The position numbers and the translations under genes were made by a program. From a virus (Duplodnaviria; Caudoviricetes), in the IMG/VR virus record IMGVR_UViG_3300035208_003503, positions 484-64,483 of that record: 64,000 nucleotides of DNA; one strand, written 5' to 3'. This document shows, piece after piece, positions 5,276 through 53,511 of the stretch; positions within the stretch are counted from its first letter, which is position 1, and each line of letters begins with the position of its first letter. The notes beneath the pieces are model-generated. The model ran no database searches, was not told the origin of the DNA, and saw nothing but the letters and a program-made list of their open reading frames with translations.

Positions 5276-5880
5276 TGAGTAAGAGAAACATAAATACTCA
5301 ACTTAACGGACTGCACCTCTTTAACGAGGCGGTAGGCAAAGAAGGAGACATTGTAAACACGGGTACCATACACGGTACCCGACGTGACTACACTTTATTA
5401 AAGTATACCGAGTACAACCAAGGAAGATGGTTCGAATCTAAGGATATAACTCCCTATTACCGAGAACTAACCGAAATGACCGAGAAAGAGAAACAGGAAT
5501 TTGCTAACCTATTCTTTGCTGGATGTACTATAACTAAAGTATTTCACCGTGTAACTACGGACCAACTGGAAGTAGAATTCGTGGATGCTGTGCACCTAGA
5601 CGAGACTCCTGTATGTACCCCTCTTACTCACCTTCAGTACTTGTGGTTAGTAATACACGGATTCAGAGTGGGTCAAGAACGTCTTCATCCTGGGTACAAA
5701 CAAAAACCGACGGATTATAAACCAGGGGATAGGGTGCTGTGCCCCACCTGTGGAGCTCCTGGTAGGTATGACCCTATGACATCTAACGTGAACGAATCAA
5801 CAACTGCTACGTATTCAGACGCAGTGTTCTTTAACACTCATACCAACTTGTGGGAATGCCACGACTGTTGGCTTAAATAG
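5269..5880 (+). CDS. hypothetical protein with C-terminal zinc finger
   Basis: CPTCG...CHDC; GAGGT SD. Confidence 0.55.
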   Translation: MVMSKRNINTQLNGLHLFNEAVGKEGDIVNTGTIHGTRRDYTLLKYTEYNQGRWFESKDITPYYRELTEMTEKEKQEFANLFFAGCTITKVFHRVTTDQLEVEFVDAVHLDETPVCTPLTHLQYLWLVIHGFRVGQERLHPGYKQKPTDYKPGDRVLCPTCGAPGRYDPMTSNVNESTTATYSDAVFFNTHTNLWECHDCWLK

Positions 5881-6421
5881 GAGGTTAACATGGAAATTAA
5901 CTTACAAGCAGGGAATTACAACTTCAACGAGCACTTGGTCCTTGACAACGGCAATGTTAAAATAGCTGTAGTATTTGAAGCTTCTAGAGAAGAAGCGGTT
6001 GACTTTTTCCTTAACCAGGGCAACTACGAACACGAAGTCATACTGGACTTCGCAGAAGGAGTCCCCCTACCCAAGCTTACGAAATGCTTGAACACTACGC
6101 CAATAGACCTTACAAAATTCATAAAAGAAAGCCCAACCCTTTAGGTTTGGGAGTATGTCAGCTACTTACTATCACAAATAGAAATACTGGGGTAACCATG
6201 AAGATAACATTAGAAACTTGTGATCCCAAGTACGGGATCTGTGACCGCTGTGGTCAAAAGGTGCAGCTTAATAAGTTTCTGTTTGGAAGCTTACATATCT
6301 GCAATGAGAACAGCTGGGCTGCTATGGTCCACCGAACTCGAAAGGACGCTATTAAGAAACAAGCCGCAGGGTATACCGCAGCGTCTACTGCAGAACTTAT
6401 GAGCACACTTGGAGGTGGATC

Positions 6422-8464: not shown

Positions 8465-9163
8465 ATGGAGATCCACATGGAAAAAATCAACAAGAATTTT
8501 ATTATCGGGGCACTCATCGTGCTCGCATTCCTGGCAATACTTTCGTTGCCGTACGTAGTAAGCTCCGGAGCTAAAGGAGCCATAGAAGGGGCATTCGCCA
8601 GTGATACGAAAGAGTACACTATAATGGACGAGCCGAACGAGGAAACCCCGGTGGGAATTGTAATGAAAGCTTTGAAGAGCTTAGACGAACCAAACACTTT
8701 GGCTACCTCATCCAAGTTAATACCCACTACAGAAGTAGCCAAACAATTTGCTGATAAATGCTTCTTATACTACACCAAAGAAGATAATGGCAGAATGGCA
8801 GAGAATTATAAACTGGATGGTAAAATGAGTGTTTCCGACTTTCAATTTAAAATGCAGGCTACATCCGACATGATACTAAGAAGGCTAATAGAGAGTGGGT
8901 ATACTCAACGTATCAACTGGCCTAATATAAAATTTCTAGGGTACACCTACGTAGAACCCGGTCCTTCAGTGGAATCGCATATGAGACTATATTTCGCGGA
9001 TCAAGGCCGTGTGTACAAAATTCATTTCAGAGCTATCTATATACAAAGTGGTGAAAAATTTCTAAGTGGCGCTTTCTTTGAAAGTGATGCCCACCTTGTG
9101 TCGATGGATGATGCAGGAGCAGCTAATATTAAATCATTCATCCGGCAACTGCTGGCTGATTAA
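8465..9163 (+). CDS. membrane-anchored protein with extracytoplasmic domain
   Basis: N-terminal hydrophobic helix FIIGALIVLAFLAILSLPYVV followed by a ~200-aa soluble domain. Confidence 0.6.
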   Translation: MEIHMEKINKNFIIGALIVLAFLAILSLPYVVSSGAKGAIEGAFASDTKEYTIMDEPNEETPVGIVMKALKSLDEPNTLATSSKLIPTTEVAKQFADKCFLYYTKEDNGRMAENYKLDGKMSVSDFQFKMQATSDMILRRLIESGYTQRINWPNIKFLGYTYVEPGPSVESHMRLYFADQGRVYKIHFRAIYIQSGEKFLSGAFFESDAHLVSMDDAGAANIKSFIRQLLAD

Positions 9164-9281
9164 TATATTTCCAAGTATGACAGGAGATCCTCAAAAGATC
9201 CCATCCCCGGAATCCCGGGGGTCTCCTGCCGTCAATACATCCTATAGATCTTTTTTTCTTTAAAGACTACCTTGTTTTTTT

Positions 9282-9320
9282 CGTCAAAATAAATGCGGAA
9301 TTGTGTTATAAGAATTTGAG
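9282..9320 (+). promoter_or_regulatory. conserved extended -10 promoter motif TGTGTTATAAG
   Basis: TCAAAATAAATGC-N-TGTGTTATAAGAATTTGAG; the same core recurs at 10041, 11355, 44831 and 52968, with variants at 12558, 17357, 53016 and 54593. Confidence 0.7.
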
Positions 9321-9556
9321 TATAGGGGATATTGACGGGGAGACCCAGGCCTCTATATATCTACTCTTGCCTAAATAGCTATGCCTGCTCCGAACAGGTA
9401 TGGTGGCAAGCTACCGTGTTAGCACGGAGAAGTGTTGCGTACACACATACTGAAGGGAGAGTTGTATTATCCAATAAGGGCCGGCTGGATAAGAAAACTC
9501 TTTGGGCTTTAACATTACTTATTAAGTTAAGTAGTGTAGGAAGTCAGTACGCCTTA
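9318..9556 (+). ncRNA. candidate structured ncRNA 1
   Basis: Begins right after the promoter motif; stems CCGTG/CACGG, TATCCA/TGGATA, AGAGTT/AACTCT, TACTGA/TCAGTA and ACATTACTTA/TAAGTAGTGT; the overlapping 76-aa ORF has a TTG start and no SD. Confidence 0.55.
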
Positions 9557-9568
9557 ATTTAATTTCAA

Positions 9569-9967
9569 ATGGAGGACGTTATGAAAGAAAGAATTGCAAG
9601 AATAAACAAGAAGCTGAAAAGTATTGGGCTTAGCCTTGTAACTGAGGATCTGATAATAGAAAAAGTAAAGGATAATGTCCACGACACTCTGTATATTTTA
9701 ACTCGTTTAAATCTCCCTAGTGAAATGGAAGACTGGCTTATAAGATATATGAGTGATGTATACAGAGATCTTGAATCTATCTATCACCAGTACCAGGACT
9801 TGCCCGAAGGGTGGGTGCTTAAAAACCCAAAAGAAGAAGAGAAGCTAGACAAAGAAACTTACCTGGAATTGGACCACGCTATTGAACTTTATAAATTGAG
9901 ACAGCGACAAACACCTATAGCTGAAAGCGTAGGCCTTAACCCAGAGTGGGACTTCTGGGCACCGTGA
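9569..9967 (+). CDS. hypothetical protein
   Basis: 132-aa ORF; GGAGG SD before the second ATG. Confidence 0.6.
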   Translation: MEDVMKERIARINKKLKSIGLSLVTEDLIIEKVKDNVHDTLYILTRLNLPSEMEDWLIRYMSDVYRDLESIYHQYQDLPEGWVLKNPKEEEKLDKETYLELDHAIELYKLRQRQTPIAESVGLNPEWDFWAP

Positions 9968-9971
9968 TGTA

Positions 9972-10008
9972 CACCCCCAACATCCGCATAGGCGTGAGGG
10001 GGTTTTTA
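9972..10008 (+). terminator. probable intrinsic terminator
   Basis: CCCCC...GGGGG followed by TTTTT immediately after the ORF stop. Confidence 0.45.
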
Positions 10009-10022
10009 TGTAATTTTTTTCT

Positions 10023-10060
10023 TCAAAATAAATGCAAAACTGTGTTATAAGAAATTGGAA
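10023..10060 (+). promoter_or_regulatory. second copy of the TGTGTTATAAG promoter
   Basis: TCAAAATAAATGCAAAACTGTGTTATAAG, near-identical to the copy at 9282. Confidence 0.7.
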
Positions 10061-10315
10061 TGATATTAACCTTTTAGGAGGTATAGACAGATTCCCGAGC
10101 CCCTTTCCCTAGGCACGTTAGAGTAGGTAGGGAATAGTCCAGAGCGGATGATAAGGCAGTAGCGGGTTAATGCTCTCAAAGCCTGGGAAGTATCCCTTAA
10201 TGCTGACACAATCTCACTGCACGTAAATCATACCTGTTAAGGCAAGGTGTGGAGATTCCTTGAACAGTGGAGTCTTAGTGGTGAGGGCCCCGGGGTAATG
10301 CCCGGGGTTAAGTCC
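10058..10315 (+). ncRNA. candidate structured ncRNA 2
   Basis: GC-enriched ORF-free stretch after the promoter; stems TTCCCT/AGGGAA, AGAGC/GCTCT, AATCTC/GAGATT, CCCGGG-N6-CCCGGG and ATTAACC/GGTTAAT. Confidence 0.5.
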
Positions 10316-10335
10316 TTATTATTATTAAACTTATA

Positions 10336-10770
10336 ATGGAGAATAAAATGAAAGAGAAAATTAAAAACAAAGCAGTAGCCACTCTCATCTACCTCGTAAT
10401 CTTTGCCGGTCCGATATTCCTCGTGATGTGTATTATGGCCTCAGTTTCCGGGTTTGTTCCCTCTTCCGAGGAAGCAGCTAACACTTTCGCGGGTCTCCTT
10501 CTCATAGGAGGATTCGGAACCTTCTGCACGATGAAGTACGTTCTGTACGTCGTCGGAGAGAAGGTAGGGCACATGGGATGCCTTGAATGGGTAACTGCTC
10601 AGGACCTCAAAAAAGGGAGTTTGATAGCCCTGGAAGAAGAGTACCTAGAAGTCCTTAGTATCAAAAAAAATGATACTAAGGTTACTGGGAAATATGAAGG
10701 ACTCGACGGAGTCCATGAATTTATGTTTAAAAATGAAGACAAGCTACAGGTTATAAAGGCCTGTAGTTAA
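10336..10770 (+). CDS. membrane protein (2 TM) with C-terminal KOW/SH3-like domain
   Basis: Two hydrophobic helices, then AQDLKKGSLIALEEEYLEVLSI. Confidence 0.55.
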   Translation: MENKMKEKIKNKAVATLIYLVIFAGPIFLVMCIMASVSGFVPSSEEAANTFAGLLLIGGFGTFCTMKYVLYVVGEKVGHMGCLEWVTAQDLKKGSLIALEEEYLEVLSIKKNDTKVTGKYEGLDGVHEFMFKNEDKLQVIKACS

Positions 10771-10774
10771 TAAC

Positions 10775-11125
10775 TGAAGACTAAGGACCAAGTCTATAAA
10801 CAAAGGTCAACCCCACCTCTTCCGGGACATCGGAAAGTGGGTCTGTGGTACCCTCCGGCGGGAGGATCTGCAGGGGCCAGTATGGTCCGAAGTTTAGAGC
10901 GCCCCGAGCTACGGGCGTTTGACACAGGGTGGTGGAGGGATAAACGGCGGCGTTAGCTCTTGCTTAGCAAGGATACGTCGGAACAGGTTGGTTGATCCTA
11001 TACATAGGTTTATCCTATAAAAAACAACAAATGGGAGGGTACTCTGTATGTCCACAGGGTCCCTGTCCTGGAGGTAGTGCCTTCTTCCGCATTGGAATCC
11101 GAAATTATAGTGACTAAATTTTAAA
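10775..11125 (+). ncRNA. candidate structured ncRNA 3
   Basis: GC-rich intergenic region; long-range GTACCCTCC (10848-10856)/GGAGGGTAC (11034-11042) helix extended by CTGTGG/CCACAG; local hairpins TTCCG/CGGAA, CGCCC/GGGCG and CTTG/CAAG. Confidence 0.55.
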
Positions 11126-11145
11126 AACAATTCATAGGTTGAACC

Positions 11146-11364
11146 ATGGATGTTTGGAAAAAAATAAAAAAAATCCCTGGTCGTAAAAGATATATGATGG
11201 CAGGGGATGAGGTAGTAGGAATAGTGACAATGGCAGCTACCTACGAAATAGAAGGTAGGTATGCGTCAGAAGACGAATACTGTATGCAACGGTACATAAA
11301 CAGAAGAATAAAGACGAAAGAGAAGTACCACAGTACTCAAAATAATCCCAAAAATGTGTTATAA
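11146..11364 (+). CDS. hypothetical protein
   Basis: 72-aa ORF; AGGT SD; its 3' end overlaps the next promoter motif. Confidence 0.45.
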   Translation: MDVWKKIKKIPGRKRYMMAGDEVVGIVTMAATYEIEGRYASEDEYCMQRYINRRIKTKEKYHSTQNNPKNVL

Positions 11365-11365
11365 G

Positions 11366-11795
11366 AATTTGAGGTAGAAACCGCTATACGCACTATAGTA
11401 TGGAACCTCCTTGACTATCTATGGAGTCTATACCCATAGAGGGTGCTACCCGGCATCTTTAAAAAAGGGGTGCGCTCATGGAGCGGGATCGACAAGTCTA
11501 TGAAGCTGATCACTTCAAGATGTTGTCCGGCATGCATCTTAAAAGGATGTGATGCAGATCGAATCCTAGGCTGAAGAGCGCCCCCACGTGGGGACGTGAC
11601 CTTTAGCGATCCAGTATAGCGGTGTTGCTATACCCGGTGAATCCCGGGACGAAATGTATACTGCGGGCACGTGCAGGTATATGTCTAGTCAGATTACCCA
11701 GGTTTAAATTGCTAGCTCCCCCGCTAGTAATGAGGGTTATATGGGGTGCCCCATGCGGGTAGCAGTTCCACCAGCGCCGGGTGGGACTGTGGTCC
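11366..11795 (+). ncRNA. candidate large structured ncRNA 4 (~430 nt)
   Basis: Follows TGTGTTATAAG at 11355; 10-bp long-range helix ACCGCTATAC (11380-11389)/GTATAGCGGT (11614-11623); nested GGATCG/CGATCC; many local hairpins; no ORF of 60 aa or more on either strand. Confidence 0.65.
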
Positions 11796-11901
11796 TATTA
11801 TTATCAGTATTTTATTTACATATTTTTTTGGAGATTACTATGATGAGATGAAATGTATCTGAGGTTAGGGCTAAAGCCCGTATCGTAAACAATAAAAATT
11901 T

Positions 11902-12495
11902 ATGGAGAGTTACATGGAAAAAGAAACCCCTGGGAAAGTGCCCTGGAGAGAGCATGCTATATTTGGATTTGATTCTGCTATGATATGCAAAGATCAAGAA
12001 CTGCTGCCAGCAGTGGCTGACGCAGTTGAATTGGTATATGATAAGGTTTTTGACGCATTTATCAAATGTGTAGACAAAGAAGGTGTAGCATCCAAAAACT
12101 TGAGCATAAAACCCTACGACGAAGAGGATGAAGAACTCCTAAAAAGAATTGTTGAAGGAGAAGAGGTTAAAACCCTATGGGTTATAGTGACCGCTAGCAG
12201 AGAATCAGCACTAAGGGAGCTTACAGTTGAATTGCTTGGGGGCCTGTCTAAAAAACTGTATAAAAAATATACAGTCGAGGACGCAGACCCCATGATAACA
12301 TTAAATGCAGGACTTAGGTTAAAGGGGGACCAGGTAACCTTAGACAGTTACAACCTTAACTTCTGCATCGTAATGGGTGGAGCAAAAATATTTGCTATTC
12401 TAGAGGAGGATAGCCCGCAGTATGCCAGCCTTAAAACCGTTTTAACCAACGTTAAAGAAGAGTTAGTAAAAAGGGAAAAAGAGAAGGCTGCCTAG
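11902..12495 (+). CDS. hypothetical protein
   Basis: 197-aa ORF followed by a terminator. Confidence 0.6.
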   Translation: MESYMEKETPGKVPWREHAIFGFDSAMICKDQELLPAVADAVELVYDKVFDAFIKCVDKEGVASKNLSIKPYDEEDEELLKRIVEGEEVKTLWVIVTASRESALRELTVELLGGLSKKLYKKYTVEDADPMITLNAGLRLKGDQVTLDSYNLNFCIVMGGAKIFAILEEDSPQYASLKTVLTNVKEELVKREKEKAA

Positions 12496-12509: not shown

Positions 12510-12539
12510 AAGGGCCTTCGGGCCCTTGTTCTTTTTTTT
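12510..12539 (+). terminator. intrinsic terminator
   Basis: AAGGGCC-TTCG-GGCCCTT followed by a T-tract. Confidence 0.85.
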
Positions 12540-12568: not shown

Positions 12569-13219
12569 GTGGAGCTTTATTATTTTAAAAGAGGAAACAT
12601 TATGAGTCCAAGAATTTATCAAGACAACGAGGTTGAGAGTACTATGAAAGCCGGAGAACTCTTTCGTAGATTTATTACGGATCAAAAAGTAATAATAAAC
12701 CTGGAGCAGATTAACGAAGTTACCCTTGAAAGGTTTAAAAACCTTATGGAGGTGTTCTTTAATGACTCCATGGTACGCATGCGTAAAGACAGAGACACCG
12801 GTTTAGTAGAAGATCTTAAACCTGACGAGATCTTTGTATTCGGAAGTAACTTGTCAGGTCGCCATGGAAAAGGTGCAGCTAAGATGGCTATGAGGTGGGG
12901 AGCTAAATACGGGAAGGGTTCAGGCCCTCAGAATAGAACCTACGCTATACCCACAAAAACAGCTAACATCAAGAAGACCCTTGGACTCAATGAAATACGA
13001 AAGTATGTAGATGAGTTCATAGACTACGCTGAAAAACACCCGGAACAGACATTTCTGGTCACTGAGATAGGGTGCGGACTTGCAGGTCTTAGGCCTGATG
13101 ACGTAGGGCCTATGTTCTTACCTGCTGTTAGACATAAAAATATTAAACTCCCAAAACGCTTCTGGAAGGCTATCGAAAAAGACTGCCGCAAGCGCTTTGA
13201 TAAAATTCTTAAGAAGTAG
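12569..13219 (+). CDS. macrodomain-like phage protein (A1S_2505 family)
   Basis: IFVFGSNLSGRHGKGAA...YAIPTK...FLVTEIGCGLAG signature. Confidence 0.75.
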   Translation: MELYYFKRGNIMSPRIYQDNEVESTMKAGELFRRFITDQKVIINLEQINEVTLERFKNLMEVFFNDSMVRMRKDRDTGLVEDLKPDEIFVFGSNLSGRHGKGAAKMAMRWGAKYGKGSGPQNRTYAIPTKTANIKKTLGLNEIRKYVDEFIDYAEKHPEQTFLVTEIGCGLAGLRPDDVGPMFLPAVRHKNIKLPKRFWKAIEKDCRKRFDKILKK

Positions 13220-13227
13220 GAGGTATA

Positions 13228-13563
13228 ATGAGCATAGCTTACTTAAATCTTATAGGACTACTAGTCGCTCACTACGTGGGTGACTTTATATTCCAACCAC
13301 GCTTTATCGGCGATAACAAGTCGAAAAAACCTGAGATAATGGCTCTACACTGTTTGCTATACGCCTTACCATTCTGGTTATTATTTGGACCTGAAGTGGC
13401 CTTGGCAACTGGAGCTCTCCACTTCCCAGTGGACATGCTGTCGAGCCAGATTACTAGGATGCTTTACAAAGAAAAACAGTACTATGGGTTCTTCAGTATA
13501 ATAGGACTGGATCAATTGATGCACTACGTAGTGCTGATCTATACCCTGCACTTTATGCTGTAA
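13228..13563 (+). CDS. DUF3307-family membrane protein
   Basis: LVAHYVGDFIFQP...H..LY...HFPVD...GLDQLMH pattern. Confidence 0.75.
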   Translation: MSIAYLNLIGLLVAHYVGDFIFQPRFIGDNKSKKPEIMALHCLLYALPFWLLFGPEVALATGALHFPVDMLSSQITRMLYKEKQYYGFFSIIGLDQLMHYVVLIYTLHFML

Positions 13564-17391: not shown

Positions 17392-18861
17392 ATGAAATTG
17401 ACTGACGAACAGAGAGTTATAGTTGACAGACTTTCTGATCCAAACTTTAATGGCAATATGAAAATAATTGCCTATGCCGGAACCGGTAAAACGACTACTT
17501 TAATGGCGATCTGCAAAGCACTGCCCAATAAGAAGATACTCAACCTATCTTTTAACAGGAGTGTAGCCGACGAAGCTAAAACTAAGTTTCCAGGCAATGT
17601 TACCAGTGAGACTTTCCACGGAATAGCGCATATCAAGATGGGCAAGCCTGACCTGGTACAGAATCCTAAAGACTTTGTTAATCAGTACCTTAAAGCCTAC
17701 CCGGAAGATTCTTTCTGGTCTGTGTGGGGAGGGTACCGTACTCTTGTTAAGTTCTGTGAGACCGATGCTACTGAGATAACTTTAGCCCATGCTCTTAATG
17801 AGAAGAATATGGACTCCTACAGAAATCTTAGTAAGAACAAAGGGTACACTGACATGTTCGTTGCAGTGGCTAAGAGAATGTGGGATCACTGGGAGGCTAA
17901 TCCAGACAGTAAAGTTCTCCACCCTATGTATCTGAAGAGATTCACTCTATCAACCGCCTGTGAGCTCAACGAGTTTGATATGCTACTAGTAGATGAAGCC
18001 CAGGATGCCAACCCAAGTATGTTAGCCATACTTAAAAAGGTAAAGTGCCAGATAGTAGTTGTTGGGGATCCACATCAACAGATCTACGAGTTTAACGGGG
18101 CTATAAACGCTCTTGACCAGTGCGACTACGAGACCTATTACTTGACCCAATCCTTTAGATTCGGGGAAGATATAGCTGAGTGGAGTAATGACATTTTGCT
18201 GCATACCAGGGCCTTTGATGGGACTCACCTTATACGAGGAAAGAAAAAAGGTAGAAGTATTATCCGTGAAGAATCGGACATGGGTACTGAAGACCTATGG
18301 AACTTGGATGCTGTTATATGCAGGACTAATAAGGATTGTTATGATTCAAGTAAAATACTTGTAAACAATTCCATACCTTATAACTTCTCAAACAGTAAGG
18401 AAGCAGCCAAAGAGCTTGATACTATACTTGAGCTACGTAGAAACTGGCCTGACAAGAAGAGATACATGGGTTGTAAAAGCTGGCTGGAGCTAGTAAGATA
18501 CTCTGGAGAGAACAGCTCGGATGTTCCGCATGCCTGGATGGTACAACATGTTGAGAAAGGCATGGGAAATGCTATAAAAGACTTCGTAGATGGATCGGTA
18601 GCCAGTGGTGTATACCTTACCACAGCGCACAGAGCTAAGGGTCTTGAGTGGGACCACGTTCTGATCACAGGTAGCTACTTCGCTGATCGTAAGAAGATCT
18701 CAGAAGAAGAGCTGCGACTGTTTTATGTAGCGTGTACTAGAGCTATAAAAACTCTGTTCATAGCTAACTCCCCTGATAATTACATGGAAATAATGGGTGA
18801 TTTTGTTAAGAAACTGAAGGAGCAGAATATTAAAGTCGTAAAGGTTTCAGACATACTTTGA
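17392..18861 (+). CDS. UvrD/Rep-like superfamily 1 helicase
   Basis: AYAGTGKTT, LLVDEAQD, VGDPHQQIY, LTQSFRFG, TAHRAKGLEW and LFYVACTRA motifs. Confidence 0.92.
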   Translation: MKLTDEQRVIVDRLSDPNFNGNMKIIAYAGTGKTTTLMAICKALPNKKILNLSFNRSVADEAKTKFPGNVTSETFHGIAHIKMGKPDLVQNPKDFVNQYLKAYPEDSFWSVWGGYRTLVKFCETDATEITLAHALNEKNMDSYRNLSKNKGYTDMFVAVAKRMWDHWEANPDSKVLHPMYLKRFTLSTACELNEFDMLLVDEAQDANPSMLAILKKVKCQIVVVGDPHQQIYEFNGAINALDQCDYETYYLTQSFRFGEDIAEWSNDILLHTRAFDGTHLIRGKKKGRSIIREESDMGTEDLWNLDAVICRTNKDCYDSSKILVNNSIPYNFSNSKEAAKELDTILELRRNWPDKKRYMGCKSWLELVRYSGENSSDVPHAWMVQHVEKGMGNAIKDFVDGSVASGVYLTTAHRAKGLEWDHVLITGSYFADRKKISEEELRLFYVACTRAIKTLFIANSPDNYMEIMGDFVKKLKEQNIKVVKVSDIL

Positions 18862-25390: not shown

Positions 25391-25514
25391 GGGCAGAGTA
25401 GCAGAAATGGTATATGCACGTCTAAGGACGGTTTATTTTGGTTCGAGTCCAAAGTAGTTATTCCTGGAATGCTACCAGGTGATAATGCGGGTTCAAGGCC
25501 CGCCTCTGCCCTCA
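25391..25514 (+). ncRNA. tRNA-like RNA with a non-canonical three-hairpin central domain
   Basis: Acceptor stem GGGCAGAG/CTCTGCCC, D-arm GCA-GAAATGGTATA-TGC, T-arm GCGGG-TTCAAGG-CCCGC; no canonical anticodon arm. Confidence 0.7.
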
Positions 25515-28787: not shown

Positions 28788-28970
28788 GGGGGAGTGGCGC
28801 AATTGGCAGACGCACATTAACTGGCACTATGACCAAAGTGGGAAACCGGGTTTATGAACAGACTGGCAGCTGGCGGAGCGAGGAGTAATTACCCAATACC
28901 TTCGATGATTGTCGTGCACAACCCGTCCCGGCGGGTGGCAATGCGGGTTCGAGTCCCGCCTCCCCCCACA
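28788..28970 (+). ncRNA. tRNA-like RNA with a ~125-nt insert replacing the anticodon/variable arms
   Basis: Acceptor GGGGGAG/CTCCCCC, class II-type D-arm GCG-CAATTGGCAGA-CGC, perfect T-arm GCGGG-TTCGAGT-CCCGC. Confidence 0.75.
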
Positions 28971-37387: not shown

Positions 37388-38923
37388 ATGGTTAAGAAGT
37401 ATATAATGATAGTCCTGACTTTTGCTAAAAAAATCTTGTTGACTCCTATTCAAATACCAAGAATAGGTAAAAGTACAAATAAACACCCCTCCAAACCTAA
37501 AAAAAGGAAACGTATTACCGACGAAGACTTCGTTCTAAACGTTATGTACGGGGAGGTAGATCGTAAAGGGATACAAGAAGGAAAGTTGTCCATTGCCCAC
37601 AACAAACCGGAAGCCATAGCCTGGTATTTCCGGACCCAGTTATCTTTATTACCCCTAACAACTAAAAATATCAAAAGAATCAAAAGATTCCTAAAGGTAA
37701 GCACCGAAGAGGAGGCTAGGGATTCCATAATGGATGAAAGAGCTTTAGTTCTAGGTAGCCCCGAAACTTATTTCAAGAACGCAGAAGAACACGTAGCATA
37801 CGTAAGTAAAATAGTAGAGAACGAAAATCTGGAGGCTAGAGACCTAGGTAAATTATATGTAGAAGAGCATGAAGCTGCTAACATAGATACTAAGATGTCG
37901 GACTTAAAATTTCTTAAAAATTTCGACAAGGTAGTGCCTAGGACAGAAGTGGTTAGTAGGGATAGGCAAGGATCGGTTCTTACTGATACCCATGCTTGGG
38001 CCCACCTTAGGCCTAGTAAAATAAAAAGGTTAATAGTAATCGATCTAAACCTTAATTCAACGGGCTTTTATTCCGCATCATCGTCCCTAGCCCACAAACT
38101 TAGAGGTCTTCTCTGCTCTAAGTTTGCAGTTGGCTTCTCTAGCCACAGTATGTTTAAGTACCTATACATAAAACCTTTAGACAAGAGACCTAGGGGATTC
38201 TACCTTCCAGGTCCTATAAAACAAGTGTACAGTGTTCAGTACAAAACTATGGGTAAAAATAAATCCAAACCAGACTACGTACCAGGAGTAGTAGCGGAGT
38301 ATAACGACGGCACTTTTAATTCTGCAACAGATATAAAAGAGTGCCTTACCACTAGTAAGCTATACCACTCCAATAACTCCGAAATTAAAAGAAGTATCCT
38401 CTTGTACTTGAACGCATTTTTAGTTTTCAAGGATCTTTGGTCCATAGAAATAACCGAGGCTGACGAAACCCTTATATTTGCAGCCGATTCAAAAGTGATA
38501 AAGAAGCTATGCGACATGAGGGATAACCCAACTACGGATTCAGGTAACAGAAAAGCGGTGCTACATACTGTGTCCTCCCACAAACGAACGCTTAAAACAG
38601 GAGGGTCAACCACTATAAAGAGGTACTTAAGGGGTATCTACACTTTCGAACTAAGAGGTTACGTTGTAAAAGTAGCTCCTCCGGCTTTTGAATTCAAAGA
38701 TCACTCAGAAAAGCGTATAGCTGAATTTAAAGGTACTATGGCTGAATGTATCTATAGAAACATACCTGAGGATATCCTGGTAAATCCAAATGCTAAGTAC
38801 CTACAGGCTTCTATAGCACTTAAACCTGAAGAGTACAAAGGCTACGATTTCACAGTAGAAAAAGTACTCGATAATCTGCCAGAGCACGCAGAGGAAACAG
38901 CTGCTGAAGAGTCCCTTATTTAA
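37388..38923 (+). CDS. hypothetical protein with degenerate H..R..H.R motif
   Basis: 511 aa; KAVLHTVSSHKRTLKTG. Confidence 0.65.
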   Translation: MVKKYIMIVLTFAKKILLTPIQIPRIGKSTNKHPSKPKKRKRITDEDFVLNVMYGEVDRKGIQEGKLSIAHNKPEAIAWYFRTQLSLLPLTTKNIKRIKRFLKVSTEEEARDSIMDERALVLGSPETYFKNAEEHVAYVSKIVENENLEARDLGKLYVEEHEAANIDTKMSDLKFLKNFDKVVPRTEVVSRDRQGSVLTDTHAWAHLRPSKIKRLIVIDLNLNSTGFYSASSSLAHKLRGLLCSKFAVGFSSHSMFKYLYIKPLDKRPRGFYLPGPIKQVYSVQYKTMGKNKSKPDYVPGVVAEYNDGTFNSATDIKECLTTSKLYHSNNSEIKRSILLYLNAFLVFKDLWSIEITEADETLIFAADSKVIKKLCDMRDNPTTDSGNRKAVLHTVSSHKRTLKTGGSTTIKRYLRGIYTFELRGYVVKVAPPAFEFKDHSEKRIAEFKGTMAECIYRNIPEDILVNPNAKYLQASIALKPEEYKGYDFTVEKVLDNLPEHAEETAAEESLI

Positions 38924-40593
38924 AGAACAATATCTGATAGAAAGCTGCGGTCAGCGCAAAAGCTGACCCAGCCGGCTATCATAGCCATTGCTATATCATT
39001 AGACTTATTTTTTTTGAGAAGCCACATAACTTTACCTGGATCTTTTTTTGGGGTTACATTCTTCATACTCATGAGACTATCACAAACCTCATCGAAATTG
39101 TGTTGTACTCCGGAGATCTCTAAGCACCTATCTATTACCTTCTTCTTTAAGAACTTAGATATTACAAAATTCCTATCCACGTCTACTCTGAACTGTTCTG
39201 GTTTAACCGATATAAGGTCATTCATCATTGCAAACCTTACTGGAAGACACTTTAGTCCTCCGCCTTTGCTTTTTATTATATCGAATATGGTTGAGTTTGC
39301 GTATGCACCACCCATAGCATCTGGACCTATTAGGGTATTAGGAGGCAGTAACTTAACCATCCTAATTACGTCGTCTATACTAAATCTTACCTTAGGTAAT
39401 GGGTATATTCTATGGTACAGAACTTTTATCTTTAGTCTGCTTCCATCCATATAGAAATCCATAAGAGCTACGGCAGTGTGACTCTTTCCGTCTGTGTCTC
39501 CACCACTCTGATCATTAGCTCCACCACCCCAGTCAATCCCAAACACGGTATGATGTCCGTGTAATTTTTTATAATTACGTATTACCCTGTCAAAGTCGTC
39601 AACACTGTATTTTATCCTACTGTCAGCACAGGCCTCTACCTCTGATAATTGAAGCATAGAAGATATGTTACCTTTAGGTATCCCAAGACGTTCATGGTAG
39701 ATCTTATTATCATCTCTGTTCTTAGCGTATACAGCGTCTACAACTTCCTGATATCTAAAGGGATTATAAACAACACCAGGCATCATTAGCTGGTTAAAAT
39801 GAAATCCTAAGATCTTTGATCTTGGATTCATAGGTATCATCTTTCCTGTTCTTACGTCAACCGGTTTCATGCAATGAAAACATAACACACCTTTTCTAGA
39901 TATCTGCTTGATATGATTCAAAGTAGTATACTTACCACAGTGATGACATTTGACTACCATAGTATGCTGAGTTGTCTCTTCAAAAAGTTTACACAGATCG
40001 TCGTCCGGATCCAAGGGGGTTCCGGTATCTATCTTTATCTTATAATTAGAACTACTCATCATAGGATCCAGAATAGGGTCAACACTTGCATGTATCATAC
40101 TCTGGGACTCATCCTTTATAAGCATATCTGCTGAACCACCTCTTATCTTTTCAACACCAGCTTCATCAGCTGCGTAACCTATTTTTAGAGTAGATCCAGT
40201 AACGAATGACTTTACATATACATCATTAAGTATTGAAGTAGACTTCATATCTCTTACTTCAGCAAGCATACTGGTCTTATTGGTCAAAAGACTTCTAAGC
40301 TCCGGATTGAAAGTAAGGATCTTTCCTAGCTTAAGCTTGGAAAACTCTTCAGCCTGTTTCTGAGATGGGCACATGTATATGGTACGAAACATCGGTACAT
40401 GTGCATATTTCAAAGTAAATAGACCATTGAATATTGACTTACCGACCTGCCTTCCAGTCCTAAGAACCATCTGTCGTGGTGCTACTATATCCATAAGATC
40501 ACGGTAGTGATAGTCGTCCCAATTAATTTTAGAACCATCATCAAGTCTGACTGATTTTTCGAAATAGGCTGAAGCAGGAATATCTAGAAACAT
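38920..40593 (-). CDS. terL: phage terminase large subunit
   Basis: Walker A region LRTGRQVGKS, RGGSADMLIKDESQ (Walker B), GTP coupling motif, CxxC...CxxC, nuclease FGIDWGG and C-terminal NDIAMA. Confidence 0.85.
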   Translation of the reverse strand: MFLDIPASAYFEKSVRLDDGSKINWDDYHYRDLMDIVAPRQMVLRTGRQVGKSIFNGLFTLKYAHVPMFRTIYMCPSQKQAEEFSKLKLGKILTFNPELRSLLTNKTSMLAEVRDMKSTSILNDVYVKSFVTGSTLKIGYAADEAGVEKIRGGSADMLIKDESQSMIHASVDPILDPMMSSSNYKIKIDTGTPLDPDDDLCKLFEETTQHTMVVKCHHCGKYTTLNHIKQISRKGVLCFHCMKPVDVRTGKMIPMNPRSKILGFHFNQLMMPGVVYNPFRYQEVVDAVYAKNRDDNKIYHERLGIPKGNISSMLQLSEVEACADSRIKYSVDDFDRVIRNYKKLHGHHTVFGIDWGGGANDQSGGDTDGKSHTAVALMDFYMDGSRLKIKVLYHRIYPLPKVRFSIDDVIRMVKLLPPNTLIGPDAMGGAYANSTIFDIIKSKGGGLKCLPVRFAMMNDLISVKPEQFRVDVDRNFVISKFLKKKVIDRCLEISGVQHNFDEVCDSLMSMKNVTPKKDPGKVMWLLKKNKSNDIAMAMIAGWVSFCADRSFLSDIVL

Positions 40594-43798: not shown

Positions 43799-44731
43799 TT
43801 AAATCTTAAAAGTTATGTCACAAAAATCACAATGAAATATTTTGGCGCCATCATCATCGTCTTTTAACACTTGGACTATTGGGTGCCCGCAGGACCCACA
43901 CAAAAACGACGAACATTCTTCACAAGTATGGGGTTCTGTAGTTCTTTCAAACCTACAGCCACAGTCACTACACTCTAAAATGTTGTCATCTTTATCATTA
44001 GTAACCTCCGGAGTTGTTATTATAGGTAGCAATCTACCAACCGGATCAAAGAACCTGAAGGAGTCGTCCTTAGGTACATACCAAATCCTAGTGCAACCAC
44101 CATCAGGTCTAGTATTAGACATAATAGCAGAGAGGGCCCTTCTTCTAGGAAAAAACAGTATTTCATCCTGAACCTCACCGATGTACCCCTGTCTCTTTCT
44201 ACGAAATGCAGAACCTCCTAGCTTGTAAGCGTGTATGTCACTATAATTAATTTGTCCTTCTATTACCATACTACTTGTGAAAGAATCAGAAGTTATTTCA
44301 GATTCCATCCTCATAATACCCTCGGTCTCAGACATAAATATTTCTGCAGTAGAGCTGGAAACAGCCAGCACATTCATCTTTGTGTAAGTTAACTTACTAG
44401 GTTCATTAGGATTACCGCCACCTTCACCTCCAGTATGTACCCAGACAGATCTCCCTACCCAATCAGCACAAGGCTCTCCAGTTAGTTCCCCTATAGTAAA
44501 TCCTGATAGATATGATAAGGTTAGGAGGAACCCAACGTCAGGGGTAACCTCACCAGATTCCATTAGAGATATCTGTGCTTGGGTCTTACCGGTAGATCGG
44601 GCTAACTCTGACTGAGACATTTTAACAGTTTCTCTTGCTCTCTTAACAGCAGCGCCTAGATTCTTAACAAGCAATCTTTCATACATCTCGTAGGGTAATA
44701 CCCTCTTTTCGTCTTGCATCTTCTCTTTCAT
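43799..44731 (-). CDS. XRE/Cro-C1 HTH transcriptional regulator with C-terminal zinc ribbons
   Basis: VKRARETVKMSQSELARSTGKTQAQISLMESGEVTP; C-terminal CSDC, CEEC, CGSC, CDFC. Confidence 0.85.
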   Translation of the reverse strand: MKEKMQDEKRVLPYEMYERLLVKNLGAAVKRARETVKMSQSELARSTGKTQAQISLMESGEVTPDVGFLLTLSYLSGFTIGELTGEPCADWVGRSVWVHTGGEGGGNPNEPSKLTYTKMNVLAVSSSTAEIFMSETEGIMRMESEITSDSFTSSMVIEGQINYSDIHAYKLGGSAFRRKRQGYIGEVQDEILFFPRRRALSAIMSNTRPDGGCTRIWYVPKDDSFRFFDPVGRLLPIITTPEVTNDKDDNILECSDCGCRFERTTEPHTCEECSSFLCGSCGHPIVQVLKDDDDGAKIFHCDFCDITFKI

Positions 44732-44767
44732 AATGCCATCTCCATATAAAATTATAAATAACGCATA

Positions 44768-44800
44768 TAACTATATACAGATAGTAATATAAATGTCAAC
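44768..44800 (-). promoter_or_regulatory. sigma70-like promoter for the XRE gene, divergent from the TGTTATAAG promoter at 44831
   Basis: Minus strand TTGACA-N18-TATAGT. Confidence 0.55.
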
Positions 44801-44878
44801 AAAAATATTAATCAAATTAATAAAGAAAACGTGTTATAAGAGTTTGTAGGATATTTAAACAACAATAAGGAGGATATT

Positions 44879-45220
44879 ATGCGTAGAACTACAAAAGAAC
44901 TCGAGACTGGTTTTCTTAACTTTATAAGGGGATTGAGTAATAACCTCAACCACCTTCATAAAGATATAAAAATCAGCTTCTCGTTCCTGGGAGATTTTAT
45001 TGAGCTGGAATCACCTGACCATAAGGTGAGTCTTAGCCCGGAAGATCTGGCCAGGCTCCTCGAACTTGATAGTGATTCATTTCTCACTAGGGCTATACAT
45101 ATAGCCTTCCGTGAGAAAGGGACCATAAGTTTCAAGGAAACGGAAGAGGGTTATAGTGACGTTTTCATAACTTGTGAAAAGTGTGAGAAGGTAACTGTAG
45201 CTCTTGATAGATTTGACTAA
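44879..45220 (+). CDS. hypothetical protein
   Basis: AAGGAGG SD; downstream of GTGTTATAAG. Confidence 0.6.
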   Translation: MRRTTKELETGFLNFIRGLSNNLNHLHKDIKISFSFLGDFIELESPDHKVSLSPEDLARLLELDSDSFLTRAIHIAFREKGTISFKETEEGYSDVFITCEKCEKVTVALDRFD

Positions 45221-45226
45221 CCTAAA

Positions 45227-45262
45227 ACGGGGGCTTCGGCCCCCTTTAAGTCCTTTTTTTTA
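45227..45262 (+). terminator. intrinsic terminator
   Basis: GGGGC-TTCG-GCCCC followed by T-runs. Confidence 0.8.
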
Positions 45263-45279
45263 TCAAAAACACGTCAAAA

Positions 45280-46080
45280 CGAATGACACAAATACCTAAT
45301 AGGAATCAAGACTCTTTAATCCTAATATTTTAGTGATTTTTTTTAGTAATACAAATTGTACCGATATTTGGTGTAACAAAATGTTACAGTAACAAAATGT
45401 TACAGTAGGTATACTGGAAAATAGGCGCGTAATGACACAAAACACTCCGAAATGTCATTTTCGTGTCATTCTAACCGGAAGTTAATAATTCAGTAAAACC
45501 AAATACTTAACTCTCTAATCTTAATTTATTAAATATTAAAAGTCACTATTCTTTAGTAATAATGTCATAATAAAAACATAATAAAAACAGTATCTTCCAG
45601 TCCCTAATGACGGTAGCGACATAAAAAGTTATAAAAGTTCACATACGAGAGAAACCTAATAAAATAGGTCTGCCTCGCACACGCACATATGTACATGTGA
45701 GTTTATAAGCGGTGTACATTCCGTCATTTTTTAGACGTTAGACAGGTTAACCTTTTAATTTAATTAGGATATCCCAATGACATGAAATGTCATTCTAATG
45801 ACGACTAAAACTTAACCTATTAAAATAGTTAAATAAAAACAATGACAAGGTGTTTGTCACCATTTTTCAGCTACTCCAGGATACTTACTTAATATATTTC
45901 TTATCTCTCACGCACCTGTACACACATAGGGTTTTTGAGGTGACAAATAGCATATTTTGAAACGTTAGACTAGATAACCTTTTGTATTATATGGGGATAT
46001 CTGGTGACACGATTCGTCATGTCTAATGTCAGATAAAACTTAAGTGCATAAAATTACTGAATAAGACTACATGTCATGAT
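45280..46080. repeat. AT-rich non-coding array of TGAC/GTCA palindromes with degenerate ~227-bp periodicity (origin/operator-like)
   Basis: AATGACA-N5-TGTCATT (45776-45794) and many TGACA/TGTCA half-sites; ACGTTAGAC at 45735 and 45962; TAAAACTTAA at 45806 and 46034; tandem GTAACAAAATGTTACA x2 (45373-45404). Confidence 0.75.
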
Positions 46081-46128
46081 CTTTTTATTTAAGCTGTATT
46101 TTACTTCAAATTTTTTTTATAAGTAAAC

Positions 46129-46157
46129 TTGACAAGGCCTTACACCTATAATATGAT
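46129..46157 (+). promoter_or_regulatory. near-consensus sigma70 promoter upstream of the tnpA-like gene
   Basis: TTGACA-N17-TATGAT. Confidence 0.75.
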
Positions 46158-46191
46158 AACTACGGTTTAGCTATTTATCTTGTGAAGAAAT

Positions 46192-51705: not shown

Positions 51706-52929
51706 ATGTTTGTAGTTAACACAACGGGAAGAACAGTAACTCTGTATGGGATAAATTTTTTAGCCGGTCAGAGCGCATTTTTTAGACAGTATGCTTTCGC
51801 AGCATCAAAAAAAGAGCTTAGAAAGCTTTTTGCAGAAGGTGGATTGGTAGCTTTCAAGAATAAGTCAAACGCACATCGCTACAATGCATTAGTGCTTTCC
51901 TTGCGGAATGTACAGGGAGATAGGAATTTAGGGAGAGCAGCCGCAGTTCTTAAAGGGCTTAGAAACTTTGATTACACACCTGTTATCGATGAAGTTAAAA
52001 GTGGTAAGATCAATTCCATTGACACTATAAAGTGGGTAGCTGCTATAATGCTCAGCTGCGATCTTCAGATAGTTGATACTCACAGAAATGAGTACATAAA
52101 GGCTGCAAAGATGGTGCACGCTGTAAAGAATCTTAAGCTTGAAGTTTATGGTAAAGACGCAGTAGATGACATGACTCCTGCAGTTGAGGCTCTTGTCCCA
52201 GGTGCAAAAGGAGAAGCAAAGGAGGTAGGTGATGTCAGTGAAAGCAAAGAGAAGAAGGAAGAAGAACTCGTTCAGGACGGAGCTGACTCAGAATCTGGAC
52301 TGGGAACTGTGCAGGAGGATGGCGTCATCGATGAGGTTGAGGTCGGAAGTGATCCTGAACCCCAAGGAGAGGACGGTAACGTTGTCACTGACTTCGACTC
52401 CGATGGCAAGGAACCAGAATCAGTGGAGGGACATGATGACTCGGGGGACGGTGGAACAGCACCCGATACCGGACCTACAGATGCTGAGGGGGGTGGCATC
52501 GGAGATACCAGTGATGGACCAGATGAACATGCTGGGGACGAAGTACATCTGGCAGGAACCGAAGATGATGGAGACTCCGAAACCGACTCAGAGGATACCA
52601 ATAGCGTTTCCACAGAGCCTGTTGAGCTGGTAGACGAAGACCCAGCAGGGCTTGATGATCCTGAGGAGGAAGTTAAAGAAACTCCCGCAGAGGATATATC
52701 AGACGAAGACCCAGCGGGTCTCGGTGATGACGTAGTAGAAGACTCAACAGAAGATGACGAGGATATTGAGGATATGACACCTACAGATCTTAAGAGCGAT
52801 CTTGAGCTAATGGTTAAGAAAGATATCGTAAAGTATGCTAATGCTAATTTTCCTGATTTCACGGTTGTAAAATCTTGGAACAAGGAAACTCTTATTGCCA
52901 AGGTTATGGAACATGCGGTAGGAAACTAA
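51706..52929 (+). CDS. protein with a long acidic low-complexity region and a small C-terminal helical (Rho-N/HeH-like) domain
   Basis: D/E/G-rich middle with EDPAGL repeats; C-terminal LELMVKKDIVKYAN...NKETLIAKV. Confidence 0.65.
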   Translation: MFVVNTTGRTVTLYGINFLAGQSAFFRQYAFAASKKELRKLFAEGGLVAFKNKSNAHRYNALVLSLRNVQGDRNLGRAAAVLKGLRNFDYTPVIDEVKSGKINSIDTIKWVAAIMLSCDLQIVDTHRNEYIKAAKMVHAVKNLKLEVYGKDAVDDMTPAVEALVPGAKGEAKEVGDVSESKEKKEEELVQDGADSESGLGTVQEDGVIDEVEVGSDPEPQGEDGNVVTDFDSDGKEPESVEGHDDSGDGGTAPDTGPTDAEGGGIGDTSDGPDEHAGDEVHLAGTEDDGDSETDSEDTNSVSTEPVELVDEDPAGLDDPEEEVKETPAEDISDEDPAGLGDDVVEDSTEDDEDIEDMTPTDLKSDLELMVKKDIVKYANANFPDFTVVKSWNKETLIAKVMEHAVGN

Positions 52930-52967
52930 TATGAATGGTGAGGGGTGTTACAAAAATAGCACAGATA

Positions 52968-53057
52968 TGTGTTATAAGAATTTGAGGATACCCCTCACAT
53001 TTTTTTCTCGATATTTGTTATAAGTATTCGAGGGGCATACCCCTCACATTTTTTTTC
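52968..53057 (+). promoter_or_regulatory. tandem duplicated promoter unit
   Basis: TGTTATAAG(A/T)ATT(T/C)GAGG...ATACCCCTCACATTTTTTTC twice in tandem. Confidence 0.65.
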
Positions 53058-53067
53058 GGAGGCAAGC

Positions 53068-53511
53068 ATGGCTGTAACGGAAGCAATGGTTAGAAAGTAC
53101 TTCAGAGACTATGATAATGAAAATATGAAGCACCTTGCAGAATTTTTCAAAAAAGAAGAGATAGAAATGGCCATAGATTTTGCTAACGAGCAGGTCGATT
53201 ACTTACCTCCGCTAGTTAGGAATGTGTCCAGCAAGAACATGCCGAATTATATTATGATAATTGGTACGGCAGCGCAGCTGATGCAGATAAAGATCAACAA
53301 TCTAACTATAAACTATACCAGCGGTGTTACTGAGCATGGAGTTCAGTTGAGTATAGGTGAAGAGCTGGGGGTATTTAAGTCTCTTATGAGTGACTTTCAA
53401 GGTATGTTTAAAGAGGCCGTGTACACGTACAAAAAAGCCCAGGACTTTAAAGGTGCTACAGGAAACATAGCGTCTCCGTTCAATAAGTATAAAAACTGTA
53501 GAAGGGGTTAG
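53068..53511 (+). CDS. putative head-tail adaptor/neck protein
   Basis: 147-aa helical protein downstream of the portal candidate; assignment from context. Confidence 0.4.
   Translation: MAVTEAMVRKYFRDYDNENMKHLAEFFKKEEIEMAIDFANEQVDYLPPLVRNVSSKNMPNYIMIIGTAAQLMQIKINNLTINYTSGVTEHGVQLSIGEELGVFKSLMSDFQGMFKEAVYTYKKAQDFKGATGNIASPFNKYKNCRRG

Follow-up and report, generated by a model that had tools for sequence, protein, structure and literature searches.

A structured non-coding stretch of no recognised family behind a repeated promoter-like motif in a metagenomic tailed phage

The lambda N leader, with its RNase III hairpin, and the early RNase III sites of T7 are structured leaders or intercistronic processing sites of early transcripts; each of them is a single hairpin or a leader of about 60-220 nt with defined protein partners. 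Phage K (Kayvirus) was found by RNA-seq to make the lncRNAs lnc001 and lnc002, which are large and early, have their own promoters, adjoin tRNA genes and are of unknown function (PMC9241854), and GOLLD, ROOL and OLE are large ornate RNAs, the first two often lying in phage or prophage contexts (PMC12286853; PMC5737381). In the hyperplastic regions of T4-type phages, the PeSL (promoter/stem-loop) cassettes have been described as composite terminator/promoter sequences of small size (PMC2839356; PMC4122927).

Here we describe a hairpin-rich, gene-free stretch of about 540 bases, termed candidate 4, that lies immediately 3' of a repeated promoter-like motif in a tailed phage. The source is a 64.5-kb IMG/VR virus record with a CheckV completeness estimate of 42%, and the full size of the phage is estimated at about 150 kb; the 64-kb stretch of this record that was analysed is called the window throughout. 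It encodes a large terminase (38920-40593, - strand), a tape-measure-like protein, a UvrD-type helicase (17392-18861) and an HNH endonuclease, its + strand is densely filled with genes, and the same phage has been assembled from landfill and groundwater metagenomes. The features of the locus are as follows.

9313-9568, 10052-10335 and 10771-11145: candidates 1, 2 and 3, with fold z of -3.5, -2.0 and -1.8, respectively
about 10930-11705, no strand assigned: variable segment of about 770 bp, running from the 3' part of candidate 3 through ORF72 and the promoter motif into candidate 4, of which it takes in the 5' 340 nt
11146-11364, + strand: ORF72, upstream ORFan gene of 72 aa, sharing the variable cassette with the 5' portion of candidate 4
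11337-11365, + strand: promoter-like motif TCAAAATAA-N9-TGTGTTATAAG, with an extended -10 reading TGnTATAAG, overlapping the ORF72 stop codon
11791-11913, + strand: A+T-rich tail, 30% G+C, including a small hairpin
11815-11844, + strand: sigma70-like site TTTACA-18-TATGAT within the A+T-rich tail
11904-09, + strand: ribosome-binding site GGAGAG serving the ATG at 11914
11914-12495, + strand: downstream ORFan gene of 193 aa, the ATG at 11914 being the gene callers' start
12510-12527 plus T-run (to 12537), + strand: canonical intrinsic terminator, the first found downstream of the 11355 motif

Candidate 4 is non-coding: between 11365 and 11901, each of the six frames carries 9-14 stops. A hidden gene read through a recoded stop codon was rejected because all three stop types occur in every frame of this interval, and no single reassigned stop codon opens any of them. 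The core (11371-11790) has a G+C content of 51.7%, compared with 41.6% for the phage window and 30% for the 123-nt tail that follows, and it is G-rich (G 0.286, C 0.231). Among gaps of at least 150 nt in the window, the candidate-4 gap is the highest in G+C. Enriched k-mers in candidate 4, considered as protein sites, gave nothing compelling. Among public runs, none listed as carrying the stretch is an RNA run; the matched runs are DNA contigs.

The + strand of candidate 4 folds with a minimum free energy of -162.9 kcal/mol (z -3.74), with 0/100 shuffles as good, and the - strand reaches -143.8 kcal/mol (z -2.70), making the + strand 19 kcal/mol more stable. The 118 other non-overlapping 430-nt windows of the phage have a mean z of -0.83 (sd 1.49), so that candidate 4 lies only about 2 sd beyond the phage's own level, and it was picked by eye out of 64 kb; the excess over chance is smaller than its raw z would imply. 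A perfect stem of at least 10 bp is present in 6% of dinucleotide shuffles, and the six perfect stems of at least 7 bp in candidate 4 compare with 4.3 +/- 2.1 in shuffles (p 0.25, not enriched). Overall, the folding of candidate 4 exceeds chance moderately.

Strong structure extends beyond candidate 4. The 430-nt windows at 9031, 10321, 10751 and 11181 are all within the ten most structured of 118, and in the region 10600-10800, the 144-aa gene that precedes candidate 4 folds over its final 170 nt with a z of -6.4. The 3' end of this gene carries a perfect 11-bp hairpin (CCUUAGUAUCA, an A-rich loop, UGAUACUAAGG) and an 11-bp hairpin over the stop codon, and thus strong RNA structure within a coding frame. 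As both the neighbouring windows and this gene end are highly structured, strong structure is a trait of the whole 9.1-11.9 kb early block. The most structured 430-nt window in the phage starts at 44721 (z -7.3), and the adjoining one, at 45151, has a z of -3.7; windows 44721-45580 lead into a 971-nt gap (45221-46191) of 31% G+C.

An earlier sequence-only reading had recognised no family in candidate 4, and our searches agree: Rfam 15, including the models for GOLLD, ROOL, OLE, HEARO, raiA, group I/II introns, riboswitches, T-box, ribozymes, 6S, tmRNA and RNase P, gave no match in the 64-kb window at gathering thresholds. At E <= 10 on 10700-12000, three Rfam hits were returned, none of them inside 11366-11795 and all far below threshold. 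A group I intron was rejected for lack of a model match; the flanking ORFs are unrelated ORFans with their own start and stop, and the promoter motif occupies the would-be 5' splice site.

The homologue search that the sequence-only reading had proposed returned no diverged homologue of candidate 4 in any collection searched. Five public contigs carry the locus, and they are 100% identical over the covered parts, up to 4.3 kb. No match to 10700-12000 was found among deposited phages by blastn, exact-pattern scans with the promoter motif were empty, and in JGI metagenomes, a 26-mer taken from the 3' module hit only contig L015, a sister-strain contig discussed below. In IMG/VR, scans with the downstream protein, its 216-aa neighbour, the helicase and the terminase turned up distant relatives only, none of them with synteny, and those reached through the helicase, the terminase and the 216-aa neighbour had no similar non-coding stretch; the nearest-relative contigs by helicase (52%, 49% and 40% identity) are short and rearranged and have no long gaps. 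When the window, the loci retrieved for comparison and five IMG/VR records were searched with a single-sequence covariance model of the 127-nt junction (R1), its own source sequence was the sole hit. One distant fragment (L003) encodes a homologue of the 216-aa protein at 62% identity and likewise contains, between small genes, several gaps of 200-600 nt that are poor in ORFs; among its gaps (1834-2273, 5406-6003) one folds with a z of -4.6, and some have a G+C content above the fragment's 33% average.

The search for relatives of the downstream 193/197-aa protein found only itself, both by phmmer with the 197-aa ORF against 1.84 billion representatives and by a word-indexed search, and the protein has no family in Pfam, PHROG or NCBIfam and nothing from the ESM Atlas. 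A word-indexed search with the 72-aa ORF72 likewise returned only itself. The structure model of ORF72 has five strands plus a helix at a pLDDT of 72; an RNA-binding fold was rejected at this pLDDT, with no Foldseek match at E <= 0.001.

Every helix listed in the sequence-only reading was found at its position by sequence check and ensemble folding. The predicted elements of candidate 4 are as follows.

11380-11389 with 11614-11623, + strand: perfect 10-bp long-range helix, ACCGCTATAC with GTATAGCGGT, spanning 244 nt (inverted repeat I2)
11380-11623, + strand: 244-nt multi-branched domain, closed by the 10-bp ACCGCUAUAC/GUAUAGCGGU helix in one of two competing folds
11486 with 11607, + strand: GGATCG/CGATCC helix, pair probability 0.74-0.89
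11486-11612, + strand: 127-nt three-way-junction subdomain with GGAUC/GAUCC closing, three arms and a 14-nt unpaired junction strand
11614-11633, + strand: local hairpin GUAUAGCG-GUGU-UGCUAUAC, with GCTATAC at 11627-11633, competing with the 10-bp long-range helix
11634-11690, + strand: two further hairpins, CCGG/CCGG and a GAC-closed imperfect one (AUGUAUAC/GUAUAUGU), p 0.74-0.99
11445-52 with 11756-63, + strand: alternative long-range helix, GCUACCCG with CGGGUAGC, p 0.82 (perfect 9-bp inverted repeat I8)
11696-11790, + strand: 3' three-hairpin module, hairpin probabilities 0.81-0.99, the ensemble pair probabilities for the three hairpins listed next being 0.87-0.99
11709 with 11723, + strand: first hairpin of the 3' module, TTGCTAGC with GCTAGTAA
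11741 with 11750, + strand: second hairpin of the 3' module, ATGGG with CCCAT
11765 with 11780, + strand: last hairpin of the 3' module, GTTCCACC with GGTGGGAC, p 0.98-0.99

The model pairs 67% of the bases of the core, including 17 G-U pairs that are not formable on the opposite strand. Helix probabilities within the 127-nt three-way junction are 0.57-0.99, and the 244-nt domain, folded alone, reaches -92.4 kcal/mol (z -4.2) with its 10-bp closing helix formed. In the full-context ensemble, the local hairpin at 11614-11633 has a probability of 0.85 and the long-range 10-bp helix one of 0.15; with each enforced, the best energies are -162.9 and -161.9 kcal/mol, 1 kcal/mol apart. The competing helices proposed as a built-in switch are therefore real and nearly equal in energy. 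The regulatory half of that proposal is not supported: as the helices at 11380, 11614 and 11627 touch no terminator, ribosome-binding site or recognisable sensor or aptamer, they constitute a bistable helix and not a demonstrated regulatory switch. A riboswitch or attenuator leader was rejected on the same ground, the helices touching neither a terminator nor the ribosome-binding site and no terminator-like hairpin being found in 11366-11913. Anti-Shine-Dalgarno control was likewise rejected, as the pairing of 11404-10 with the ribosome-binding site is lost once the 3' context is extended.

The minimum-energy fold contains a 319-nt domain closed by the 11445-52/11756-63 helix, which was absent from the helices listed earlier. 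The fold model makes no choice between the two incompatible global architectures of candidate 4; as modelled, individual hairpins are mostly well defined (p 0.7-0.99) and the global arrangement is not.

A sister strain, represented in two other metagenomes (ENA ERZ27250894 and JGI 3300028602) by two independent assembly pipelines, shows 2 differences from the window in 4.7 kb. Its left contigs, which carry the 144-aa gene, end at 10938 (L027) and 10928 (L028), and its right contigs, which carry the downstream gene, start at 11712 (L014) and 11705 (L015); all four match the window at 100% identity as far as the break. Because the sister-strain contigs stop and resume at these positions, the interval of about 10930-11705 is variable in close kin. 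ORF72 was not found on record in the two sister-strain samples. In a third sample, short low-coverage pieces match only 11696-12356, with no real match to 9000-11695, and a 151-nt piece starts at 11696 and is 100% identical from there on. The interval, absent, replaced or polymorphic in the near-identical sister strain, looks like a variable cassette. When the two flanks are joined as in a simple deletion, the fold is unremarkable (z -2.3). Separately, the sister strain has a 730-bp deletion (12746-13475) in which the start of the 216-aa gene is fused to give an 86-aa product and a DUF3307 gene is lost; the joining contig for this deletion also occurs in one sample holding the full form.

In other strains, the downstream gene and the 3' three-hairpin block remain together. 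A strain break at 11696-11712, within candidate 4, is most simply explained by two juxtaposed modules, and candidate 4 is probably two joined modules (the 5' 330-340 nt and 11696-11790) rather than one RNA. The original description of one RNA of about 430 nt is not sustained, as the break parts the 5' 340 nt from the 3' hairpins and the global fold is left undecided by the model; the 11445/11756 helix spans this boundary and would join modules that are not found together in every strain. The polymorphism could reveal whether the 5' domain is dispensable.

Exact copies of TGTGTTATAAG occur at 9302, 10041, 11355 and 52968, with near-copies at 44830 and 53014, and 0/100 shuffles reached 7 matches. 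A TCAAAATAA box nine bases upstream is common to the copies at 9302, 10041 and 11355, and AATTTGAG after the motif is common to those at 9302, 11355 and 52968. The motif has the look of an extended -10 element and is a putative promoter. Gene-free sequence between motif and start codon amounts to about 255 nt at 9302, 285 nt at 10041 and 540 nt at 11355. At 9302 and 10041, the motif precedes structured gene-free leaders that end at a ribosome-binding site, and candidates 1 and 2 each directly adjoin the ribosome-binding site of an ORFan gene; at 44830 and 52968/53014, a start codon follows within roughly 40-90 nt. In 52920-53070, the tandem copies at 52968 and 53014 each have, within about 10 nt downstream, a G+C hairpin and a run of 7-8 T, an arrangement reminiscent of the composite PeSL motifs known from T4-type phages. 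In both samples that contain the phage, a separate contig of about 2.1 kb, at a depth close to the phage's own, carries a sequence that differs from the candidate-2 promoter region (10023-10057) in 2 places; it is probably a further motif copy in a part of the genome outside the window.

Paralogy among the four candidates was rejected: local alignment scores are at background, and the promoter motif is all that blastn finds shared. The R1 three-way-junction model has no paralogue in the other three, and a 3' motif shared by candidates 2 and 4 (GTCCTNATTATTAT) is at chance level.

Downstream of the promoter-like motif, a consensus scan of the + strand found no intrinsic terminator in 11366-11913. 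The 3' end of candidate 4 has a strong hairpin (11764-11788) followed by an interrupted U-rich tract, with the promoter-like motif upstream and no intrinsic terminator; other terminators of the phage are canonical. Within 11830-11851 of the A+T-rich tail, GGAGA stands at a suitable distance ahead of a three-codon mini-ORF (Met-Met-Arg-stop, 11840-11851) that overlaps the sigma70-like site at its -10.

Our leading, though still tentative, reading is that candidate 4 belongs to an early transcript, as a structured untranslated leader or an intercistronic segment that acts in cis and is built of two modules, and that it is not a free-standing RNA gene. Transcription would start about 6-8 nt past TGTGTTATAAG, near 11371, and would also read through from the identical motif at 10041; the transcript would run from the structured core through the A+T-rich tail into the 193-aa ORFan gene and stop at the terminator at 12510-12537. 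Its 5' 330-340 nt would comprise the closed 244-nt multi-branch domain and three hairpins, carried with ORF72 and the motif on the cassette of about 770 bp, and the 3' three-hairpin block (11696-11790) would be part of the downstream gene's own upstream region. Acting in cis, densely paired G-rich RNA could shield a long untranslated segment from Rho and ribonucleases, and it may supply processing or stability determinants between early cistrons.

The layout backs such a leader, and the mechanism is offered as a proposal only. A non-coding, G-rich and G+C-enriched core with a + strand folding advantage follows a motif that is repeated four times and that also precedes structured gene-free leaders after 9302 and 10041; no terminator was found in 11366-11913, and a canonical one (12510-12527) lies just past the gene. 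Structure is common to the whole early block, and the strain boundary at 11696-11712 together with the sigma70-like site at 11815-11844 accounts for how the downstream gene can exist without the 5' part. The fit is incomplete in that 420 nt of structure far exceeds the needs of stability or processing, and no specific cis-regulatory contact was found, the ribosome-binding-site pairing of 11404-10 not being robust. Conservation and covariation lend no support, with no homologues and five identical public copies, and the folding lies only about 2 sd past the phage background in a region picked by eye. A discrete RNA ending near 11790 would also be in keeping with the abrupt fall in G+C there and with the presence of another promoter-like site downstream.

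It is possible, if rather doubtful, that candidate 4 is instead a functionless spacer that illegitimate recombination or the insertion of a cassette left behind in a hyperplastic early region, with hairpins that reflect composition and chance and with selection acting on the promoter motif and gene signals only. A spacer would suit a stretch that is surrounded by a block of ORFan genes, holds a strain-level indel or replacement boundary and has a stop-codon count like that of random sequence; by the shuffles above, its helices are individually not significant (10 bp in 6% of shuffles; 7-bp stem count, p 0.25). The dissimilarity of the four candidates, with no junction paralogue in the other three, points the same way, and repeated promoter/stem-loop motifs are known to mediate module shuffling in T4-type phages (PMC4122927). 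However, the other intergenic DNA of the phage is A+T-rich, with a G+C content of 0.30-0.44 compared with 0.517 in the core, and an MFE z of -3.7 with 0/100 shuffles as good, together with a + strand advantage through G-U pairs, speaks against a spacer. Phages rarely retain 400 useless nucleotides, and three consecutive motif copies (9302, 10041, 11355), each followed by a structured gene-free leader, look organised.

We consider it unlikely that candidate 4 represents a new class of large structured ncRNA that stands alone and acts in trans, with transcription from the 11355 motif and an end, or processing, near 11790; such an RNA might be a decoy, a scaffold or self-assembling, perhaps with the 72-aa protein. 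The strain boundary would split the proposed RNA at about 11700, and there is no intrinsic terminator at its 3' end though the phage's others are canonical. In favour of such an RNA, the last hairpin is strong (p 0.98-0.99) and the G+C-rich core is discrete, with a sharp drop in composition at 11790. Its own promoter-like motif lies directly upstream, a separate sigma70-like site (11815-11844) is available to the downstream gene, the 244-nt domain is self-contained (z -4.2), and the large early lncRNAs of phage K, with their own promoters, offer a precedent (PMC9241854). Neither a family match nor homologues were found; complementarity of candidate 4 to the rest of the window is not beyond chance, and by our reading none of the hairpin loops in the predicted fold is a GNRA or UNCG tetraloop.

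More speculative still, and rather improbable, is the idea that the 244-nt domain, the motif and ORF72 form an accessory cassette for a new class of phage structured RNA, possibly an early RNA-protein decoy or scaffold against a host function, with the other three stretches (9.3-11.1 kb) being unrelated orphan RNAs of the same functional kind.

Least likely of the readings, and very improbable, is a DNA-level element whose inverted repeats would act as DNA, for instance a site at which a small mobile cassette recombines or inserts, a signal for replication or packaging, or palindromes bound by protein. In its favour, some of the hairpins (CCCCACGUGGGG and AUGGGGUGCCCCAU among them) are perfectly palindromic and thus fold alike on either strand, the - strand also beats shuffles (z -2.7), the segment varies between strains and a 12-nt motif, TACCCAGGTTTA, lies at the right strain boundary (11695-11706) and recurs at 11001 and 11131. 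Against it, 10930/11705 shows neither terminal inverted repeats nor a target-site duplication, the cassette of about 770 bp carries no gene for a recombinase, transposase or endonuclease, and no iteron-like tandem array is present, the repeat families being short, few and weak. The G-U-dependent + strand advantage suggests RNA, and an origin would more readily be sought in the 971-nt A+T-rich gap at 45221-46191, which the sequence-only reading had called an array of palindromes.

In summary, candidate 4 is a real structured non-coding stretch of no recognised family, in which neither a single RNA nor a switch is demonstrated; the present case rests on one sequence, and the limits of its evidence are now measured. 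If the core is a functional RNA, the early region would contain a set of structured RNAs, 240-430 nt in size and unrelated to one another, all of them behind a copy of one promoter-like motif, which would hint that large phages use orphan structured RNAs much as they do ORFan proteins.

Among the described systems, GOLLD, ROOL and OLE share with candidate 4 a size range and a multi-domain, many-hairpin appearance, but candidate 4 has no covariance-model match at E <= 10, no adjacent tRNAs and no conserved family. A GOLLD/ROOL-type RNA was rejected on location as well, as ARAGORN found no tRNA or tmRNA gene anywhere in the 64-kb window, the 'tRNA shell' sites at 25391-25514 and 28788-28970 included. 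Of the proposed resemblance to large phage ncRNAs, size survives; a model match, nearby tRNA genes, a terminator of its own and homologues do not. Unlike the phage K lncRNAs, candidate 4 is known from sequence alone, adjoins no tRNA gene and has no similarity to deposited phages. PeSL cassettes do not explain 420 nt of structure, and the strain boundaries (about 10930 and 11700) lie off the motif copies (10041, 11355); the likeness to them lies in the recurrence of a short promoter motif among small early ORFan genes, in the variability of the region among strains that are otherwise near-identical, and in the motif copies at 52968 and 53014 with their G+C hairpin and T-run. Compared with the lambda and T7 leaders, the candidate-4 core is larger (about 420 nt, more than 14 helices), with no conspicuous long duplex of the RNase III type, no link to a ribosome-binding site found and no homology. 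Like them, it would be untranslated, hairpin-rich RNA that separates an early promoter from small early genes of the same strand, with no terminator ahead of the gene.
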